DNA of 64,000 bases, taken from IMG/VR virus record IMGVR_UViG_3300009788_000088, one strand, 5' to 3'. Numbering within the stretch: position 1 is the first letter of the stretch; each line of letters opens with the position of its first letter. The notes under the pieces were generated by a model. That model had not been told where the DNA came from and did no database searches. It worked only from the letters and a program-made list of their open reading frames with translations. The position numbers and the translations under genes were made by a program. The stretch is from a virus. Shown here in pieces: positions 21,571 through 58,015 of this stretch.

Positions 21571-21835
21571 TCAACATTTTTTGAAATTGGTTATTGATAG
21601 AATCGATATCATCTTGGGTTAGCCACCGGAAAAAGCCTTCTTCTTTTTCAAACTCAGGCCGAATCTCTGTTTCCGTTTCCGCAAGGAACGGGGCCGTCTC
21701 CAATATCAACCGCCCGTCTTCCGATCTCCTGTAATACCAATCTAAAAATTGAGGCATGTTGTGTGGATTAGGATTCCTCTCATTCGGGGAATGTGGTGAT
21801 TTTCGTACACCCCGTTTCCGTTGCATACTCTCCAT
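21518..21835 (-). CDS. Hypothetical protein
   Basis: Likely start MESMQR with an AGGAGG RBS. Confidence 0.5.
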   Translation of the reverse strand: MESMQRKRGVRKSPHSPNERNPNPHNMPQFLDWYYRRSEDGRLILETAPFLAETETEIRPEFEKEEGFFRWLTQDDIDSINNQFQKMLIEALSKEVPGETAGDSG

Positions 21836-22268
21836 TTTGCAACCTCCTGAAGACTTCTTGGGAATGCTTATACTTGTATCCCTTACCGAAACCATAACCC
21901 CAGTTATACCGGGTAGCATTCCAGTTGACAATCCTCGTGAGCCAATAACCAATTTCAGCCCTCCAGCCATATCCACCAAGCTGAACACCAAGGAACATGT
22001 AGACTCCGATAACTGGATATCCTTTCCGGGCCACCGCTTCCATCAGCTTGGCGTCCGCCCGGAGACGAGACATGCGATTGCCACCCAGCCAATAGGTCTT
22101 GTCATGCTCAACACAATCTTCATACCAAGGAAGACGTGAAGACCATTTACCGAAGTATCTAACGATAGTCGGAGATAAAGTATTCCTGATAGCGGCTATT
22201 CTGGACCATAACCACGACATATTTCCGGAGCATCCATCCGTACCAAAAGGCTTTAATTTGTAATTCAT
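21780..22268 (-). CDS. Phospholipase A2-like protein (HD-x2-Y)
   Basis: TDGCS...CVEHDKTYWLGG...RADAKL pattern. Confidence 0.55.
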   Translation of the reverse strand: MNYKLKPFGTDGCSGNMSWLWSRIAAIRNTLSPTIVRYFGKWSSRLPWYEDCVEHDKTYWLGGNRMSRLRADAKLMEAVARKGYPVIGVYMFLGVQLGGYGWRAEIGYWLTRIVNWNATRYNWGYGFGKGYKYKHSQEVFRRLQNGEYATETGCTKITTFPE

Positions 22269-33624: not shown

Positions 33625-34035
33625 TTACCACTCCTTTGGTATCAAGAATTCAATATGCCTCCTTAGACCCTCCTTACGGTGAGCGGACAGGGCACTCTTG
33701 TTGACCCTTTTCAGAATACTCTCCAGAGCTTCCTTATCCCGCACTAACTTCTCCACCTCGTCTGGATGTTTGGAACACTGAGTTTCAATTTCTTCTCGTT
33801 TGAAGTTTGGTACATATTTTATTTTGGCACCACACTTAAACTTGACATGTTCAAACTGTTCGCCAGAGCAATGGGTAGAAGATACATACAACCCCTGTAC
33901 CTCTGCGCCGCAGATTGGACAACGCTCATAATTAAGATGCTTCAACGGCCACATTTTCATAATTACTCCTTCCGTGGAAGCAACTTGTAAAAGCCCCAAA
34001 ATTCTATCAAGGTGGCCTCCGTCACCTCTTTCCAT
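33625..34035 (-). CDS. Zinc-ribbon hypothetical protein
   Basis: CPICG motif; the true start is probably internal (MKMWP). Confidence 0.55.
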   Translation of the reverse strand: MERGDGGHLDRILGLLQVASTEGVIMKMWPLKHLNYERCPICGAEVQGLYVSSTHCSGEQFEHVKFKCGAKIKYVPNFKREEIETQCSKHPDEVEKLVRDKEALESILKRVNKSALSAHRKEGLRRHIEFLIPKEW

Positions 34036-34343
34036 TTAATATGAGGACAATGAGTTTTTAGGATACGGCGAATAAGAGCATAATGATCATCATCCATCGT
34101 GGCCGCAATAGTCTGTCCAGTATACCACGTGTTGGAATCCTGACCATAATTTCTACCAGTCTTGCGAGACCATTTCTCTTCCCGGCCATCCTTTATGGTC
34201 ACAATCATGGCCTTCGTAAGACGGACCACTTTTGTAAGTCTGGTAGGGCCGTGGTAGTGATCGTGGATCGTCACCTTATCCCCAACCTCAAGGTCTTGGA
34301 TATTCTCTTCAGCTTCCCACATGGTTACTCCTTCTTTGAACAT
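33963..34343 (-). CDS. Hypothetical protein (SH3/KOW-like N-terminus)
   Basis: LEVGDKVTI motif. Confidence 0.55.
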   Translation of the reverse strand: MFKEGVTMWEAEENIQDLEVGDKVTIHDHYHGPTRLTKVVRLTKAMIVTIKDGREEKWSRKTGRNYGQDSNTWYTGQTIAATMDDDHYALIRRILKTHCPHIKWKEVTEATLIEFWGFYKLLPRKE

Positions 34344-35391: not shown

Positions 35392-35424
35392 ACATATTTA
35401 CGAATAGAAATGTGAATAGATTGT

Positions 35425-35459
35425 GCATAGTAACTCCTAACCCACAGGAGTTACTATGC
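35425..35459. repeat. Perfect 14-bp inverted repeat (hairpin)
   Basis: GCATAGTAACTCCT-aacccac-AGGAGTTACTATGC. Confidence 0.85.
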
Positions 35460-35506
35460 TAGATTGGCCCCAGTAGTAAAGGATGCCTACGTTAAGGGTG
35501 TACGTC

Positions 35507-35731
35507 TTATGCTTTAAGCAACGACCCCAGCCCAAAACGCAGGACTTTCTTATGTGAGAAAGCGAATTCAAACTCAATTTGCTCTGGCTGTCTGAAAAAC
35601 AATTCAGCCATTTTTTCCACAGCGCACGGGCCACAAGGTTCTATAATGGGTTCATCCTGTCTTACCCGAAAAACCTCATAGGTCGTTTTGCATTCTGGAC
35701 ATTTCGCTTTCTGGTTCATTAAAAACGCCAT
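35507..35731 (-). CDS. Small zinc-ribbon protein
   Basis: CPEC and CGPC motifs; GGAG RBS. Confidence 0.5.
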   Translation of the reverse strand: MAFLMNQKAKCPECKTTYEVFRVRQDEPIIEPCGPCAVEKMAELFFRQPEQIEFEFAFSHKKVLRFGLGSLLKA

Positions 35732-35750
35732 CTACGTCTCCAAAAATAAT

Positions 35751-36792: not shown

Positions 36793-37031
36793 AAATCAAC
36801 CTCAAAACAGTATAACTTAATATGCGAATTTTCTGGTTCGCCGGGTTGGACGTAAAATTCTAGCCGCTCTACCTCATACTTCCGAATGATACCTTTGATG
36901 TTCACGAGAAGCCGTTCTCCCGATTTCGGTAAAACGGATAGATGAAAAGTGGATATGGGAGCATTCCCATCCATCAAAAAAACTTTTATCATACCGTTGA
37001 TCCTTCTTGAAAGTCTGGACTCTTTCTCCAC
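36789..37031 (-). CDS. Hypothetical protein
   Basis: Overlap chain. Confidence 0.5.
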   Translation of the reverse strand: MEKESRLSRRINGMIKVFLMDGNAPISTFHLSVLPKSGERLLVNIKGIIRKYEVERLEFYVQPGEPENSHIKLYCFEVDL

Positions 37032-37504
37032 CCCGATGGTTCATGTTTCAACCTATTCCCCGTTTGATCAATAAAAGATGCCTGATCCTCATCCCTCAGA
37101 GGTTCCATGGCTTTGTGCATCCTCATAATGATATCAAAAAGATCGGAGTTATCACCTTCCTTGGCCCGTGCAATACAAACCTCCAAAGGCACATCAAAGA
37201 CCGCCCAGATAATCCGAGGGTGCATCATACGCCACATGATCCGGCGCTTCTCTGTGGTGTTAGTAGCATCGATAATAACTCCCCGGTGTCCAGCTTCATA
37301 CAGGGCACGGGTCATAGTCTGGGCGATACCCCACACCATAGGTTCAGCATCCCCATAAAAAGCTTGACCGTGAAGGGCCAACCGGATAGCGTCCGGGTTG
37401 ACGATAGCGTATCCTTTTTCCTTGGCCATCTTTTTGGCCCATGTGGATTTACCGCTCCGGGGGAGACCAATGGTCACTATCATAAGGGTTGACGGGTCAA
37501 TCAT
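36989..37504 (-). CDS. Polynucleotide kinase-like P-loop protein (AAA_33), kinase domain only
   Basis: GLPRSGKSTWA, NPDAIR, IIDATN and CIAR motifs. Confidence 0.85.
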   Translation of the reverse strand: MIDPSTLMIVTIGLPRSGKSTWAKKMAKEKGYAIVNPDAIRLALHGQAFYGDAEPMVWGIAQTMTRALYEAGHRGVIIDATNTTEKRRIMWRMMHPRIIWAVFDVPLEVCIARAKEGDNSDLFDIIMRMHKAMEPLRDEDQASFIDQTGNRLKHEPSGWRKSPDFQEGSTV

Positions 37505-38437: not shown

Positions 38438-38735
38438 ATTATTGCACCAACATAAAATATGTTTGGTGTGTCAACCTTATTAACAAATATGAAAACCCGT
38501 TTCGACAATTCCTTTGAACCTCTCCAGTAAAGTTTGGGTGTGGTCCAACCAACAACGGTGGAAATCTGTGGTTTAATAAAGGGATTGTCATTTTTGGATA
38601 TAACATCATAATCTGTCCTTTTGGATCATATATTAACCATTATAGCAGTTAATGGTTAATATGTTACTCATTATCTTTTGACATCATTCGCAGTAAGTAC
38701 CAGTAAAACTAGGTCTTACAGCAATTATTGTCAAG

Positions 38736-45612: not shown

Positions 45613-45696
45613 TGGAAGAAGGTAAAGGAATCGAACCTTCGGGTGTAACCCCGGCAAGGCTTTCAAGGCCCATTATCCCCATGGATGCTACCTTCT
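45613..45696 (-). tRNA. tRNA-Ser(TGA), atypical
   Basis: GGGC-CTTGAAA-GCCT; long variable arm; AGAAGGT/ACCTTCT acceptor stem; CCA. Confidence 0.8.
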
Positions 45697-46889: not shown

Positions 46890-47093
46890 TTATCTCATAA
46901 ATTCAAAGTGTCCTTGCGCCTCAAAAAAGGCGGCTGTTTCCGGGGGAACGATATCCCCCCTTTTTTGATGCATCCTGATGTGCTGAACTGCTTCCGCAGT
47001 AGACTGAAAATCCAACACACAGGTTAAACAATGAATAACCAATTCTGATGTAGTGGGGTTATCCCCCTGAATTATGTTAACCTCTTCTTGCAT
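46890..47093 (-). CDS. Small C2H2-like protein
   Basis: CLTC...HIRMH; start MQEEV with an AGGAG RBS. Confidence 0.5.
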   Translation of the reverse strand: MQEEVNIIQGDNPTTSELVIHCLTCVLDFQSTAEAVQHIRMHQKRGDIVPPETAAFFEAQGHFEFMR

Positions 47094-47143
47094 GAACCGT
47101 TCTCCTAAAGTACCACTTTTCGTTACAGTACGTAAATGAATGG

Positions 47144-47234
47144 TGGTGGAGAGGGGAGGATTTGAACCTCCGTGTTTACCCAGTGGGACCAGATTTACAG
47201 TCTGGCGCAATCAACCAAACTCTGCCACCTCTCC
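47144..47234 (-). tRNA. tRNA-Tyr(GTA)
   Basis: CCAGA-CTGTAAA-TCTGG; long variable arm; ACCA. Confidence 0.94.
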
Positions 47235-47243
47235 ATAAAAGTT

Positions 47244-47457
47244 CGTGATAGTGTGCCGGATTCTCACCGGGGAGCATCGCCTATTTAAGTAATTGCCGTC
47301 TACCGTATGGTCACCGACAGCACTTCGGCTCTGGGCCGGGATAGCTCTCCAATTTATTTAATTTTGGTGGAACACTGAGCGCTCTTAATATGTGCGATGA
47401 AAGCAGAGCAAGCACCGCAAGCCATTTTTATTCGCTCCATGGCTCCACACTATCACG
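47244..47457 (-). ncRNA. Structured ncRNA candidate E1 (about 214 nt)
   Basis: 12-bp terminal stem CGTGATAGTGTG/CACACTATCACG, with a T-loop-like hairpin CCGG-TGAGAAT-CCGG next to the 3' strand. Confidence 0.7.
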
Positions 47458-47479
47458 GGACATCCAAAGACGCCCCATT

Positions 47480-47707
47480 TTACAGAGTGACACCTTGCTT
47501 CACAAGATAATCACCCAACGGCTTACCTTTCTTATCCAACCAGTCAACGACTCGTTGGCGAATCCTTTCCTTGCGGGTGGCGGCCATACGGCGGCCACCG
47601 TTCAAGTCAGCAAGAAGTTCTTCACTGAAGCCCTCTTCGATATGCTTGAACTTGGTAAGGATATAGGCATTGGCAAGCTGTTTGTCTGTTGCACCTTTTT
47701 CAGACAT
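47480..47707 (-). CDS. Hypothetical protein
   Basis: AGGAGG RBS. Confidence 0.6.
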   Translation of the reverse strand: MSEKGATDKQLANAYILTKFKHIEEGFSEELLADLNGGRRMAATRKERIRQRVVDWLDKKGKPLGDYLVKQGVTL

Positions 47708-47733
47708 GATACTACCTCCTAATGAAAGGGGGT

Positions 47734-48138
47734 TTAGTTTCCCCCCATTGGTAAGGAAGGGTCGCTCTCCTTATCATCAGGATTGGAGTTCTGGTTTCCA
47801 CCCTCCTCATTACCCTCTCCGGGAAGATTTTCACTCCCAGTCGGTTCCGTGGATTCTTCTTCCTCTGGGGGTGAAAGCACTTCATCTTCCCGTGCTTTCT
47901 CATACGTTTTCATGAAAAAATTCACCTGACCCAAAGGCCGTTCAATTGCCTTGCGGACGTGATGGGGCAAAACCTCACCAAATCCTGTGACAGCCTCAAC
48001 TGTCTCTGCAAGAGCTTCCGTAATGTTTGCAAGAGCTACCACCTTTAATTCAGTGTTCTCTTCCAGAACATCATCCACCAACTGCTTCACTTGCTCCATG
48101 ATATTTTCCTCCTTGTTAAGAGCATAATAATGTTTCAT
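47734..48138 (-). CDS. Hypothetical protein with an acidic tail
   Basis: RBS present; directly downstream of the tmRNA. Confidence 0.6.
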   Translation of the reverse strand: MKHYYALNKEENIMEQVKQLVDDVLEENTELKVVALANITEALAETVEAVTGFGEVLPHHVRKAIERPLGQVNFFMKTYEKAREDEVLSPPEEEESTEPTGSENLPGEGNEEGGNQNSNPDDKESDPSLPMGGN

Positions 48139-48159
48139 GACTAAACTTCACCTCCTATT

Positions 48160-48470
48160 GGATAATAAGGAAGGAGGCCCAACCCCGTAGCCACCTAAGC
48201 GGCCATTTCTACAGGTGCGTTGGCACTTGTAAGAGTGGGCTTGATTAACGTGGGCCAGCCCACCCACGGGTCTTCCAGCATACCTCATCCGCCATGTCGA
48301 AACCATTTCACCCCCACCCCTCCATATCCCGGAAGTCTTATTGAGTCTCCGCTAATGAGGCGTCAGCGTCTCACTAGGATACAGAGGGGTGGAGGTGCTG
48401 AGAATCGAACTCAGGTCCACAACGTTTCAGTATACCTTCTGTGGCCGAAGCCACGGCGACCAACATTGAT
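48160..48470 (-). ncRNA. ssrA: Circularly permuted (two-piece) tmRNA, tag (A)ANAPVEMAA*
   Basis: Acceptor piece ...GGACCTGAGTTCGATTCTCAGCACCTCCACC (ends about 48388) lies upstream of the coding piece GGGGGTGAAATGGTTTCGAC (starts 48315); G3:U70 pair; tag frame 48224-48195; outer ends approximate. Confidence 0.88.
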
Positions 48471-48507
48471 TGAATGTCTACTGCATAGACATTCATGAGG
48501 TAAATCC

Positions 48508-48666
48508 GAATCCATGTAGGCTTCTCCAGCGAAACTGAAGGAAGCAAAAGTTAGCATCTTTTTTAACAGGCCCAGCTTCCAACCCCCTGCTATTGTTTAG
48601 GACGGCCTACAACAAAGCGCCTTATTGTAGGATAGTATTGCTCCGCTGGAGAGCCTACATGGATTC
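48508..48666 (-). ncRNA. Structured ncRNA candidate E2 (159 nt)
   Basis: 23-bp terminal stem with one bulge (GAATCCATGTAGGCTCTCCAGCG) enclosing two hairpins. Confidence 0.7.
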
Positions 48667-48671
48667 AAAAA

Positions 48672-48802
48672 CGGTGGGAGGTGGGGTTCGAACCCACATT
48701 AGCAAAATGGCCAACCCTTACTTCCTATTCCAGAGACACTCCTTTCATGACAGTAATTTGCTGTCCCTACTCTCAGTATCCCACTTTTTGGATGACTCCC
48801 AC
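48672..48802 (-). ncRNA. Expanded tRNA-like RNA E3 (about 130 nt)
   Basis: Acceptor GTGGGAG/CTCCCAC, T-arm GTGGG-TTCGAAC-CCCAC, D-like ATCC/GGAT; branched region in place of the anticodon arm; no encoded CCA. Confidence 0.75.
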
Positions 48803-48812
48803 ATAAATTAAA

Positions 48813-48934
48813 TTCAAAGTTGGTTACCAGCACTGGCCTTCTGTCTCTTTAGGCTAGAAGGTGCACTCAGATAAGGTGGGAAGCTATCCCACTAACCGGC
48901 TTAACCCTGCCCTCAGTTAGAAACCAACTCTGAA
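48813..48934 (-). ncRNA. Structured ncRNA candidate E4 (122 nt)
   Basis: 13-bp terminal stem TTCAGAGTTGGTT/AACCAACTTTGAA (G:U on the minus strand) with internal hairpins. Confidence 0.65.
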
Positions 48935-48937
48935 ACT

Positions 48938-49023
48938 TGGTGGCGGGAGTCGGATTTGAACCGACGTTACCTTTCGGTGCTGGGATATGAACCCAGTGAG
49001 TTTGACCACTACTCTATCCCGCT
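48938..49023 (-). tRNA. Initiator tRNA-fMet(CAT) with a long variable arm
   Basis: A1xC72 mismatch; GGG/CCC in the anticodon stem (CTGGG-TTCATAT-CCCAG); extra arm ACC-GAAA-GGT; ACCA. Confidence 0.85.
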
Positions 49024-49032
49024 ATAAAACGG

Positions 49033-49145
49033 TGTTCCTGTATGACTCTAAGGTAGCTTGTCATCAGCCATGCATAGCCTTTGATAGCAGACCCCTAAGT
49101 GCCTTACGGTTCCGGTGGACCCGATATATCCTTAGTACAGGAACA
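49033..49145 (-). ncRNA. Structured ncRNA candidate E5 (113 nt)
   Basis: 10-bp terminal stem TGTTCCTGTA/TACAGGAACA. Confidence 0.6.
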
Positions 49146-49149
49146 TAAT

Positions 49150-49270
49150 TGGCTGGGCCGACAGTGGGTGGCATATAGCTCCGCTCTCCAGCATTCCGTT
49201 GTGGTGGCCTTACCACTCGGTTTTCTACTTTCGACAATCAGCTTCAAACTGATTGCTCTGTCCAGCCCCA
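49150..49270 (-). ncRNA. Structured ncRNA candidate E6 (about 120 nt, ends in GCCA)
   Basis: Terminal GGGCTGGACAG/CTGTCGGCCC pairing; internal hairpin CAATCAG-tttgaag-CTGATTG. Confidence 0.6.
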
Positions 49271-49280
49271 TAACTTTTAT

Positions 49281-49663
49281 GGAAACCAAGAACTGGTCGG
49301 AGGAACATTCTGGGATTGTTCCCATGCTCTTCTTAGATTTGTGTTTTCCGCCACGATTCAAGGTCTTGTTCCGGGATGGCCATCCCATACTAAAGCACCC
49401 CTACTGGCAAGATCGAAACTTGCACCCCCCGGCACACCCAGTGATATATCATATCGACTGTTTACGAAGGGACCAGACTACTAAGTCTCCAGCCTTGAGA
49501 TGAACTTGAGAGACCGTTCGTTGTGCGTTACACTCTTCAGAGATTCGCTTGCGGCCGGATAACCCAAGGCGGCGCAGTCCCCGCAGTTCCCTACAAAGAC
49601 CCTACCAGCCCACATTACACCCTGTGCGGGATGCATTCTGTCACCGACCAGTTCTTGGCTTCC
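49281..49663 (-). ncRNA. Large structured ncRNA candidate E7 (383 nt)
   Basis: 20-bp terminal stem GGAAGCCAAGAACTGGTCGG/CCGACCAGTTCTTGGTTTCC; many internal hairpins, including the T-loop-like GCAAG-TTTCGAT-CTTGC. Confidence 0.75.
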
Positions 49664-49679
49664 TAACATTCTTTCCATT

Positions 49680-49799
49680 CCTACCATGTAAAGACCCGAC
49701 CTCCCGTGGGAATCCAGCGGGTTGCTACAGCCCTTCAAACGCCGTCTCGTTATGCGTACTGCCCACGATAGCAAAGAAGTGGGGTCTTTACATGGTAGG
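49680..49799 (-). ncRNA. Structured ncRNA candidate E8 (120 nt)
   Basis: Perfect 18-bp terminal stem CCTACCATGTAAAGACCC; nested CGTGGG/CCCACG; starts 1 nt after the tRNA-Cys CCA. Confidence 0.7.
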
Positions 49800-49800
49800 G

Positions 49801-49874
49801 TGGACACGGCGGGGAGAATTGAACTCCCTTATCTGGATTTGCAATCCAGCGCCTAACCGATTGGCTACACCGTG
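49801..49874 (-). tRNA. tRNA-Cys(GCA)
   Basis: CTGGA-TTGCAAA-TCCAG; U73; CCA. Confidence 0.92.
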
Positions 49875-49943
49875 TTGCCAGAACTCCATACTACTCTTTA
49901 GTTTTCAAAGATCAATGCTACAATACAAATATAACTATTTTTC

Positions 49944-50243
49944 TTAAGATGTCAAGTCTAAAAGTTCTATTAATTTTTCGTTCGCTTCCTTGATGATTTC
50001 AGCCATTTCATCGTCTATATCTTCTGTGTAAGCAGACACTCTAAAATCCTTCGGCCAGAATTTTCCGCCGAATCCCAACCATCCTTGGAACCTCCACTCG
50101 TTGGTTGGTTCGAATCTTCCCATCTCATGAACGAATGCGGAACGTTCGCTGGACCTTGCTCCACAGACTTCAACCAAAATGGTATAAATCTGATTGGCAA
50201 ACGTTTCGTTCAATCCCATATCAAGATGTTTCGGTATTTTCAT
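49944..50243 (-). CDS. Phage hypothetical protein
   Basis: Start MKIPKH with an AAGGAG RBS; EWRFQGWLGFGGKFW motif. Confidence 0.65.
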   Translation of the reverse strand: MKIPKHLDMGLNETFANQIYTILVEVCGARSSERSAFVHEMGRFEPTNEWRFQGWLGFGGKFWPKDFRVSAYTEDIDDEMAEIIKEANEKLIELLDLTS

Positions 50244-50250
50244 CACATCT

Positions 50251-50380
50251 CCTTGGCGACTGGGAAGCGGCCATGCCGCCGTCAAAATAAATGGGTCATA
50301 TTGTGATCCAAATATCGGTCTTAATTGGGTCACCGACCTAAACTCACGTGGGGCCGTTGGCCGCTTCCCTTAGTCTCAGG
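50251..50380 (-). ncRNA. Structured ncRNA candidate E9 (about 130 nt)
   Basis: Terminal stem GACT-aa-GGGAAGCGGCCA/TGGCCGCTTCCC-AGTC; followed by GCCA. Confidence 0.6.
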
Positions 50381-50461
50381 CTTCATTTATACCACAAAAC
50401 GGCCACTTTGTTATAACTTATTTCAATTTAACTCCACTTTCACGTCAGAGTGGAGTTAAAT

Positions 50462-50535
50462 TGGAAGACCCATCTGGGGTCGAACCAGAACTAGAAGGTC
50501 CAAAACCTTCCGTGCTACCCTTACACCATAGGTCT
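50462..50535 (-). tRNA. tRNA-Gln(TTG)
   Basis: GAAGG-TTTTGGA-CCTTC; CCA. Confidence 0.9.
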
Positions 50536-50613
50536 ATATGCCGCAGTGTCTCATCCCCAGAGCCTTCCCGCTCTTCCCTAACACCACATGACCCGAAGGC
50601 TTCCACCCAAAAT

Positions 50614-50688
50614 TGGCTCCGGGAGTAGGATTTGAACCTACAACGACCCGCTTAACAGGCGGGGGCTCTACCGTTGAGCTATCCCGGA
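50614..50688 (-). tRNA. tRNA-Asn(GTT)
   Basis: CCCGC-CTGTTAA-GCGGG; GCCA. Confidence 0.95.
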
Positions 50689-50844
50689 ATACTTTTTAAG
50701 TTTAACTATTTGTCTGTCAAAGTCAAGTAAAATGTTTTCAGTTCTAGCGGCCCATTTATCCATTCCAACTTGTCTCATACATTTGATAGCCGCTTTCAGA
50801 TGGTCACGGGCTTCGAATACTGGATTCTTATTTTTCTTGAACAT
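50668..50844 (-). CDS. Small hypothetical protein
   Basis: Start MFKKNK with a GGAGGT RBS; the 3' end overlaps tRNA-Asn. Confidence 0.45.
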   Translation of the reverse strand: MFKKNKNPVFEARDHLKAAIKCMRQVGMDKWAARTENILLDFDRQIVKLKKYSGIAQR

Positions 50845-57145: not shown

Positions 57146-58015
57146 TTATTTCTTCTCTCCCCAAGATACTTTAAGCCATTCCTGTTCTAATTTTCTCATA
57201 GTGACTTTATCGGGGAAAGCATCCTGATAATATTTTCCTTTGGTAAGTTTGAGTGTTTTTATGATATCCTTACCGATAGGATTCCTTAAAGGAGCGGTGA
57301 TAAATGAAGCCCCCACCTTCCGGAGTTGTTTCAATTCAACCTCTACCTGTGGGTTAGTTGGATCACCCAGATCAATCATGGCATCAACCTCTTTAAAATG
57401 CTTACCGAAAAGTTTATCATATTTTCCAGTCAAAGCCATTTTGTTGATTTGTTCCCACGTATCCCGAAGCATTTTTTTATCAACTGTCCGGTAACGTTCT
57501 TCATTCCTCTTTAACGAAGTTTCAAGGTCCACGTTAATGAACACCCCAGATACGTCATATCCAATCTTTTCTAAAAACTCTTTTTGTTTATTGAGGCGGC
57601 CGGGGTTTTTCCCGGTTCCATCAATGATGATAGGAAACATTCCATTAACCCAGAAAGCAAATCGCTTGGACGTGAGAGGTTTCACCCTTTGCTCTCTATA
57701 ATCCCGAATTTCTGGGCGATTCATATAATCCGCCGTAAAAACCTTCCCCAACTTCCCAGCCTTCACATCCCGCATAAGCTGAAGTACCTGACGGGTATCA
57801 GCCAAGTGATTAGGATTTCCGGTGATATAGTTGTTGAACAAAACCATTTCAAAAATATCATCAGAGTTAAGCGTTACCGCTCCCATACCCCCAAACATCT
57901 TACTAGAGAAAAAAGATTTTCCAGACCCCGGAGCACCTACCATAAAAACGGCCTTGAACAGATTCTTATCATTGATGGACTCTGTATAAAATTGTGAAAA
58001 AGTTACCAGTTCCAT
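57146..58015 (-). CDS. Zeta-toxin-like P-loop kinase with a CTS-like N-terminus
   Basis: GAPGSGKS, NSDD, IIDGTG, GYDV and SLKRNEER motifs. Confidence 0.8.
   Translation of the reverse strand: MELVTFSQFYTESINDKNLFKAVFMVGAPGSGKSFFSSKMFGGMGAVTLNSDDIFEMVLFNNYITGNPNHLADTRQVLQLMRDVKAGKLGKVFTADYMNRPEIRDYREQRVKPLTSKRFAFWVNGMFPIIIDGTGKNPGRLNKQKEFLEKIGYDVSGVFINVDLETSLKRNEERYRTVDKKMLRDTWEQINKMALTGKYDKLFGKHFKEVDAMIDLGDPTNPQVEVELKQLRKVGASFITAPLRNPIGKDIIKTLKLTKGKYYQDAFPDKVTMRKLEQEWLKVSWGEKK

Follow-up and report, generated by a model that had tools for sequence, protein, structure and literature searches.

Layout of the array

The window analysed here is a 64-kb stretch of the IMG/VR virus record IMGVR_UViG_3300009788_000088 and covers the part of an uncultured T4-like myovirus genome that is devoted to replication and nucleotide metabolism, with all genes on the minus strand. 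On this strand, between positions 47244 and 50369, nine discrete units of 108–383 nt (E1–E9) lie amid tRNA-Cys, tRNA-Met, a two-piece transfer-messenger RNA (tmRNA) and tRNA-Tyr, and these units are the subject of our analysis (Table 1). The window further encodes a family-B polymerase, gp32, a gp44/45-like clamp loader and clamp, UvsW and a gp46/47-like nuclease, together with ribonucleotide reductase, ThyX, dCMP deaminase and dNMP kinase. Because the polymerase is only 34% identical to cyanomyovirus gp43, the phage has no close cultured isolate. ARAGORN and Rfam detect 24 tRNAs in the window, with CCA encoded in 24/24, plus the tmRNA, which is permuted. The same phage recurs in three other assemblies, in contigs of up to 147 kb, and L010, L011 and L012 are such copies with 100% identity; its genome is roughly 157 kb, the length of the longest contig listed for its cluster.

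Read along the minus strand, the order is promoter, tRNA-Cys, E8, E7, E6, E5, tRNA-Met, E4, E3, E2, tmRNA, two open reading frames (ORFs) of 134 and 75 amino acids (ORF134 and ORF75), E1 and tRNA-Tyr. The units are tightly tiled, with spacers of 5 nt (E2/E3), 10 nt (E3/E4), 3 nt (E4/tRNA-Met), 9 nt (tRNA-Met/E5), 4 nt (E5/E6), 10 nt (E6/E7), 16 nt (E7/E8) and 1 nt (E8/tRNA-Cys); the gap between E2 and the tmRNA is 28 nt, and that between E1 and tRNA-Tyr 9 nt. A first-pass annotation of the sequence had given the unit coordinates and the eight spacers from E2 to tRNA-Cys, and they were exact on re-measurement. It had also described units most of which are bounded by their own inverted repeats (E3 by a 7-bp acceptor stem) and that are not copies of each other. 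Both descriptions hold: the closing helices measure 10–24 bp, the units are single-copy, without similarity among themselves or elsewhere in the window, and there are no second copies in the related contigs L002, L004 and L013. The word CCAUGUA/UACAUGG, common to the stems of E2 and E8 (CCUGUA in E5), was considered as a shared motif, which is unproven because its 9 occurrences in the window amount to no enrichment over the 8.1 expected.

Both ARAGORN and Rfam support tRNA-Cys, tRNA-Met(CAT), tRNA-Tyr and the permuted tmRNA. The tRNA-Met(CAT) has a long extra arm, which is unusual for a Met or initiator tRNA. The tag of the phage tmRNA is unusually short, and the closest model is the betaproteobacterial one; the tmRNA of L002 (L002:11587-11970) has the tag ANAPVAMAA. 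An exact-word search of GTDB genomes for a matching host tmRNA found none.

The predicted sigma-70-type promoter lies 53 nt upstream of tRNA-Cys, and its TTGACA box and spacing are kept in L002 (with TATAAT) and L004. Since this promoter is conserved and the minus strand shows no terminator-like site from there to the tmRNA, the region from tRNA-Cys to tmRNA is likely transcribed as one polycistronic precursor. The array as a whole, however, consists of about three transcription units, not one, so that its description as a single polycistronic array in the first-pass annotation stands as regards co-orientation with the tRNAs and tmRNA behind a conserved promoter, and not as regards its extent. 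The spacers are A/U-rich, often with UUAU right before a unit, and the 5′ flanks of all 24 phage tRNAs have the same look. None of the E units has an encoded CCA, in contrast to all 24 tRNAs, and the tRNA-like units are therefore probably not aminoacylated.

Table 1. Features of the array and its surroundings, by position in the window. Folding z-scores (z) were computed against dinucleotide shuffles.
Feature	Coordinates	Strand	Description	Support
E1	47244..47457	-	214 nt, 12-bp closing helix, between 75-aa ORF and tRNA-Tyr	z -3.5
Two orphan ORFs	47480..48138	-	134 aa and 75 aa, between tmRNA and E1	ribosome-binding sites; conserved in L002, L013, L014
tmRNA	48104..48479	-	permuted, two-piece, tag ANAPVEMAA	ARAGORN, Rfam
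E2	48508..48666	-	159 nt, 15-bp perfect closing helix, ~27 bp in fold	z -7.2
E3	48672..48802	-	131 nt, tRNA-like scaffold, 7-bp acceptor stem plus T arm	z -1.4 (weak)
E4	48813..48934	-	122 nt, 13-bp closing helix with one G·U, weakest unit	z -1.9
tRNA-Met (CAT)	48938..49023	-	86 nt, CCA encoded	ARAGORN, Rfam; kept in L002
E5	49033..49145	-	113 nt, 10-bp closing helix	z -2.7
E6	49150..49270	-	121 nt, bipartite closing helix GGGCUG/CGGCCC + ACAG/CUGU	z -2.6
E7	49281..49663	-	383 nt, multi-helix, 20-bp closing helix with one G·U	z -4.9
E8	49680..49799	-	120 nt, 18-bp perfect closing helix, 1 nt past tRNA-Cys	z -5.9
tRNA-Cys (GCA)	49801..49874	-	CCA encoded	ARAGORN, Rfam
Putative promoter	49928..49955	-	sigma-70-type, TTGACA-16-TATATT	11/12 matches; top promoter-like site in 46.5-51 kb
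E9	50262..50369	-	108 nt, 12-bp closing helix	z -4.7
Tenth unit	50536..50613	-	78-nt structured spacer, tRNA-Asn/tRNA-Gln	small closed fold, two compensatory changes

Relatives of the array

Among ~15 billion proteins and three contig collections, we find four true relatives: L002, L004, L013 and L014. L002 (13 kb, ~78% nucleotide identity) spans tRNA-Asn to ORF75, L004 (~89% identity over the aligned part, from the same sample as L014) spans E9 to E8, and L013 (~94% identity) spans ORF134 to tRNA-Tyr. Blastn searches of cultured phages (INPHARED) give matches confined to tRNAs, and a search of IMG/VR at the protein level yields a single distant locus that lacks tRNAs. When IMG/VR, JGI metagenomes and GTDB genomes were searched by exact word for the promoter block, the tmRNA and conserved blocks of E7, E2 and E3, there were zero matches.

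Selection acts on the RNA

Perfect inverted repeats are clustered at the array beyond chance: of the seven in the window with at least 12 bp and a loop of 40–420 nt, five fall within these 3.1 kb (binomial estimate ~5e-6). For E7 (-152 vs -124 kcal/mol), E2, E5 and E3, folding is more favourable on the minus strand than on the plus strand. When seven units are compared with L002 in consensus folds, 41 base pairs show two-sided compensatory changes, 30 show one-sided compatible changes and 6 are broken. Because consensus folding favours covariation, we redid the count with window-only folds, which give 23 two-sided changes vs 2–10 in controls in which the 3′ partner was slid by 1–3 columns. In these folds, 50 of the 115 changed pairs are broken, and the internal folds are thus only partly correct. 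The closing helices are the best-supported structures in the comparison with the relatives. The first-pass annotation had noticed that the single stem mismatches of E4 and E7 are G·U pairs on the minus strand; these are as stated, and the compensatory changes add to the case for selection at the RNA level that it had drawn from them.

The units are 71–89% identical at the nucleotide level, on par with the tRNAs and tmRNA, while the neighbouring dNMP kinase is 64% identical at the protein level. Mechanically called ORFs of 94–134 amino acids do overlap E5–E8 on both strands, which could be taken to mean that the stretch hides small protein-coding genes. These ORFs, however, have no Pfam matches and no ribosome-binding sites, most indels relative to L002 are a single nucleotide long, and the reading frames run across unit borders at which L002 is rearranged, and are not kept through the swap of E5 and E6. 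We give the coding alternative next to no credence, in agreement with the earlier view that no ORF here is protein-like. On this basis, it is well supported by the sequence comparison that the stretch is non-coding and that the RNA transcribed from the tRNA strand is the target of selection.

Individual units differ in how much they contribute to this picture. The largest, E7, has 13 of 116 pairs changed on both sides in its consensus fold with L002, with 0 broken and with indels of 1 nt; its closing helix accounts for three two-sided and two one-sided changes. Its core is strongly conserved, with an identical block of 39 nt vs L002 and identical unpaired blocks of 22–39 nt, and the minus strand contains 21 G·U pairs. 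In E2, which contains a conserved 55-nt internal hairpin and has 6–7 compensatory changes vs L002, the outer 10 bp of the closing helix are invariant, while the inner ~15 bp have been wholly rewritten with pairing kept. The closing helix of E8 sits within 24-nt arms that are 92% complementary, and E8 shows 2–7 two-sided compensatory changes vs L002; E6 shows 4–7 compensatory changes vs the same relative.

E3 and E1 have tRNA-like features. The T arm of E3 reads GUGGG-UUCGAAC-CCCAC, there is no CCA, and ~90 nt of hairpins replace the D/anticodon region; 2–3 compensatory changes are seen vs L002, one of them in the acceptor stem (G-C to A-U). E1 has a T-arm-like 4-bp hairpin with a 7-nt UGAGAAU loop that abuts the 3′ strand of the closing helix. 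It is 94% identical to L013 (in an alignment that includes the flanks and tRNA-Tyr), and 3/3 of the stem substitutions in L013 yield a minus-strand G·U pair, the plus-strand counterpart of which would be A·C.

Outside the main block, the closing helix of E9 has two compensatory changes vs L002 (A-U/G-C exchanges). A conserved TGgTATAAA box lies ~15 nt upstream of E9 and an AAGGAG ribosome-binding site 10 nt downstream. Because of this -10-like box and ribosome-binding site, E9 looks like an mRNA leader, and it is probably the 5′ leader of the mRNA of a 99-amino-acid ORF (ATG at 50243) in a separate transcription unit. It had been counted as one of the array units, from which its transcriptional context sets it apart. 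A 51%-identical, distant homologue of the 99-amino-acid ORF is found at L003:10001-10297, in an unrelated, integrase-bearing, prophage-like contig with no tRNAs, and has no room for an E9-like leader. A tenth structured unit, the spacer at 50536-50613, shares three identical blocks of 16–24 nt with L002 and is better conserved than the tRNAs; it lies beyond the span that the first-pass annotation had marked.

Turnover of units between relatives

Comparison with L002 and L004 reveals that units have been swapped, lost or inserted as wholes, or refilled. In L002, E5 and E6 stand in reversed order, and E4 is precisely missing together with its spacer, so that tRNA-Met is followed by UUUAU and then by E3. 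An insertion of 640 nt separates the tmRNA from the ORF134 homologue in L002 (L002:11930-12573), and four extra units can be recognised in it. X1 is 178 nt long with a closing helix of ~25 bp; X2 and X3 are acceptor-plus-T-arm scaffolds (T arms GGUUCGAAUCC and GGUUCAAAUCC) that are called by neither ARAGORN nor Rfam; X4 is a structured stretch without a closing helix. In L004, the outer 18-bp helix of E8 persists with a compensatory change at one pair and an A·C at another. It encloses an interior of unrelated sequence, whose new complementary bases lengthen the helix, and the resulting unit has 192 nt. The unit that follows E8 in L004 differs from E7.

Because of these swaps, absences, insertions and interior replacements, the units act, as far as the alignments go, as independent, exchangeable modules. 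Within units, conservation is nonetheless high, as it is in the tRNAs and tmRNA, and the longest identical block measures 39 nt.

Comparison with known RNAs

Rfam searches of 47000-50700, and of E7 alone, detect only the tRNAs and tmRNA: none of the E units has a family match at the gathering threshold or at E<=10, as the first-pass annotation had presumed in presenting them as outside known families. The same is true for L002, where Rfam matches only tRNAs and tmRNA. By itself, this blank is no proof of novelty because Rfam has no family for the T4 RNAs rnaC and rnaD either, and we therefore made a direct comparison with T4.

The T4 rnaC and rnaD RNAs, also called species 1 and species 2, accumulate late in infection and have no assigned function; stable RNAs of the T4 cluster have been known for about fifty years, still without a function (PMC9697503). 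The parallel with T4 that had been proposed is borne out in location and in plan. In T4, rnaD and rnaC follow tRNA-Arg on the tRNA strand at 1 and 6 nt, a tight tiling like that of the array here. The rnaC plan consists of a 7-bp acceptor stem, a T arm and two hairpins without CCA, and E3, X2 and X3 match this plan. In location, too, E3 resembles T4 species 1: it sits on the tRNA strand of a tRNA cluster, 10 and 5 nt from its neighbours. The acceptor stem of rnaC covaries among Tevenvirinae genera. There is no sequence similarity between rnaC and the units, and a covariance model built from five Tevenvirinae rnaC sequences, which recovers T4 rnaC at 167 bits, finds no match at E3 or in L002; its sole hit in the window is a true tRNA at 14 bits. 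Since the model misses them, E3, X2 and X3 appear to be either analogues of rnaC or homologues beyond recognition.

The differences from T4 are of scale and of tempo. Where T4 has two RNAs, there are at least nine here, mostly non-tRNA-like, with closing helices of 10–24 bp and with one unit of 383 nt. And where rnaC and rnaD are stable across ~790 T-even genomes, the units here turn over among close relatives. In kind, the array is the T4 species 1/2 phenomenon, enlarged and diversified, and not a categorically new system.

Beyond T4, GOLLD and ROOL are large structured RNAs of unassigned function beside phage tRNA islands, sometimes with embedded tRNAs (PMC12286853). E7 shares the tRNA-island setting and the 'ornate' character of these RNAs. 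Their models (RF01998 and RF03087) give no match at E<=10 in 47000-50700 or on E7 alone. At ~580 nt (ROOL) and >800 nt (GOLLD), both are larger than E7, which is here accompanied by many small, unrelated RNAs. Group I and II intron and other Rfam models give no match to E7 at E<=10. RNase P models have no match at E<=10 (47–50.7 kb) or E<=1 (32–47.3 kb), and neither GGAAAGUCC nor GGCUUA-type strands of the RNase P P4 core (CR-I, CR-V) were seen in the sequence; a second tmRNA-like RNA was likewise not found. Bacterial Y RNAs (YrlA/YrlB) have their ends paired in a long stem and carry a tRNA-like module, and E1 and E3 have tRNA-like corners; the YrlA model (RF02553) matches no E unit at E<=10, its only weak match being true tRNAs.

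Functional small RNAs can also arise from the processing of tRNA precursors, as we propose here. Lalaouna et al. are said to have described in 2015 one such by-product, the small RNA sponge 3′ETS-leuZ. RNAs of this type, derived from tRNA-operon spacers, are short, mostly unstructured antisense sponges, whereas the units here are large, closed and highly structured. A search within the window for antisense targets of the conserved blocks gives a best match of 12 nt, which is at chance level.

A probable stable-RNA operon and its alternatives

On balance, we think it probable that the array is a stable-RNA operon of a T4-like phage, in which one precursor is processed into units that are exchangeable cassettes with a role in trans. 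The promoter at 49955-49928 would drive a single precursor from tRNA-Cys through the two-piece tmRNA, with E1 following in the same direction before tRNA-Tyr and E9 heading a neighbouring mRNA. Each unit would be an independent folding domain, its 5′ and 3′ ends paired in a long helix or, in E3, in the acceptor stem. Sites of the A/U-rich UUAU type are the kind cut by RNase E-type enzymes in tRNA operons, and the precursors of T4 species 1/2 RNAs are cut by RNase P and RNase III. Host tRNA-processing endonucleases, RNase E-type and additionally RNase P at tRNA-like ends, might likewise cut the A/U-rich spacers here. Exonucleases would then trim the products until they meet the closing helices, so that small RNAs resistant to nucleases remain, as with T4 species 1/2. 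By this route, and by analogy with T4, processing into stable RNAs is plausible. The units would be accessory cassettes, with gain, loss, reordering and refilling between closely related phages.

As for what such RNAs do, the tRNA-like features (in E3, E1 and the X2 and X3 units of L002), the gene company and the turnover reminiscent of accessory genes lead us to favour, tentatively and from context, a role as protein-binding mimics or decoys in a conflict over the translation or tRNA apparatus. The gene company includes a full tRNA set, the tmRNA and two Pnk-like kinases (36989-37504 and 57146-58015, minus strand; polynucleotide-kinase-like P-loop, PHROG 505), of which the first lies inside the tRNA zone; this pair suggests tRNA-repair capacity as in T4 Pnk. 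Taken further, we can speculate about a fast-diversifying 'RNA arsenal', in which one operon uses host tRNA processing to release mutually unrelated tRNA mimics, long-stem RNAs and the ornate 383-nt RNA, each of which would neutralise or hijack a different host RNA-binding factor. Conceivable targets, named with no more confidence, are tRNA-targeting or dsRNA-sensing defence nucleases, the degradosome and ribosome-associated factors. It is just as tentative that the cassettes are traded between phages like anti-defence protein genes.

Several points weigh against this interpretation, in addition to the preference of consensus folding for covariation and the pairs broken in the window-only folds. 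Comparative support comes from one to two relatives per unit, which makes a statistical covariation test of the R-scape type impossible. The lineage is rare and its relatives are few and short, which is a weakness. E5 (89% identical in L002) and E1 show one-sided changes only, and E4 has neither covariation nor a significant z-score; since it is missing from L002, the only relative that covers its position, it is without comparative support. For E9, a cis-acting leader is a better fit than a free RNA. Among the ~50 ORFs of the window we find no TROVE/vWA/Ro60 protein, RtcB or other RNA-binding partner, and no defence system or protein partner can be tied to the units. Lastly, none of the RNA runs among the sequencing runs searched contains the phage sequence, which occurs only in the run of the source subsurface metagenome.

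Other explanations have to be weighed against the stable-RNA operon. The units could be purely cis-acting, as folding insulators, processing punctuation or exonuclease blocks for the maturation of tRNAs and tmRNA, or, for E9 and E1, as stabilisers of untranslated regions, and would do nothing further once released. The tight tiling with tRNAs and the A/U-rich spacers would fit such a role, as would the placement of E9 exactly between the -10-like box and ribosome-binding site, that of E1 between an ORF and tRNA-Tyr, and the invariant outer stems of E2 and E8 around variable interiors. However, the tRNAs of this phage and of T4 are mostly spaced 1–5 nt apart without such units, which are thus unnecessary for tRNA processing, and the architecture of E7 with its identical unpaired blocks, as well as the conserved cores of E2, E3 and E6, far exceed spacer-level constraint. 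We regard a purely cis-acting role as unlikely. Slightly less likely again, in our estimate, is that one or more large units, above all E7, are catalytic RNAs or self-assembling RNA-only complexes, forming a new class analogous to ROOL and GOLLD, with the small units as unrelated passengers. The size of E7, its many helices, long invariant core and compensatory peripheral helices speak for this, and it lies beside phage tRNAs, the setting reported for ROOL and GOLLD (PMC12286853). Yet Rfam gives no match at E<=10, only two E7 sequences are known, no ribozyme signature is recognised, and exact-word relatives are absent from IMG/VR, JGI metagenomes and GTDB genomes.

A partnership with a Ro60/Rsr-type protein encoded elsewhere in the ~157-kb genome, with the units acting as Y-RNA-like RNAs, would draw on the combination of closing stem and tRNA-like module that makes up the YrlA plan, on the T-arm-like hairpin stacked on a helix in E1, and on an ACAGCAA sequence in E3. 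With RF02553 missing all units, no TROVE/vWA protein in the 64-kb window and units that are all mutually different, we consider this improbable. The possibility that the units are DNA-level elements, either miniature inverted-repeat transposable elements (MITEs) or tRNA-adjacent recombination cassettes with terminal inverted repeats, rates lower still. Terminal inverted repeats, presence/absence, order changes, interior replacement and breakpoints at unit borders are all features that such elements would have, but the units are single-copy, whereas MITEs are marked by dispersed copies, which are found neither in the window nor in L002, L004 and L013. Moreover, the stems contain G·U pairs (A·C on the other strand), substitutions keep pairing on the transcribed strand only, internal helices covary too, and there is no transposase nearby. 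The central proposal of the first-pass annotation, that these are structured-RNA genes or elements on the minus strand, agrees with what the relatives have kept through compensatory changes.

A niche that has grown to at least nine unrelated, structure-conserved and swapped RNAs suggests that phages use it generally as a platform for expressing non-coding RNAs. New candidate RNA classes for biochemistry come with it, among them several natural tRNA-scaffold RNAs and an RNA of 383 nt whose core is strongly conserved. Functions in an arms race would be expected to show such cassette turnover and, if that reading is true, RNA effectors would join a field dominated by protein anti-defence factors.

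Neighbouring genes and other structured elements

The orphan ORFs around the array (99, 134 and 75 amino acids) have no family match and no informative protein-atlas neighbours. Outside the RNA region, long perfect inverted repeats occur only at 21582-21957, where a 15-bp repeat (TGAAATTGGTTATTG) spans 376 nt, and at 57617-57979. Two tRNA-flanked gaps on the minus strand (35392-35750 and 38438-38735) have z-scores of about -4 and perfect hairpins of 13–15 bp; considered as closed units, they were rejected, as they look like hairpin, terminator or promoter regions or small ORFs instead. At 45617-45696 (minus strand), a weak match to the tRNA-Sec model (31 bits, E 0.007), not called by ARAGORN, overlaps the start of a 124-amino-acid ORF and may be another tRNA-like element. 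Finally, the tRNA zone encodes a 126-amino-acid protein (33963-34343, minus strand) with a sub-threshold match to PF24203 (phage ProQ C-terminal-like, E 7e-5), which is possibly RNA-binding.

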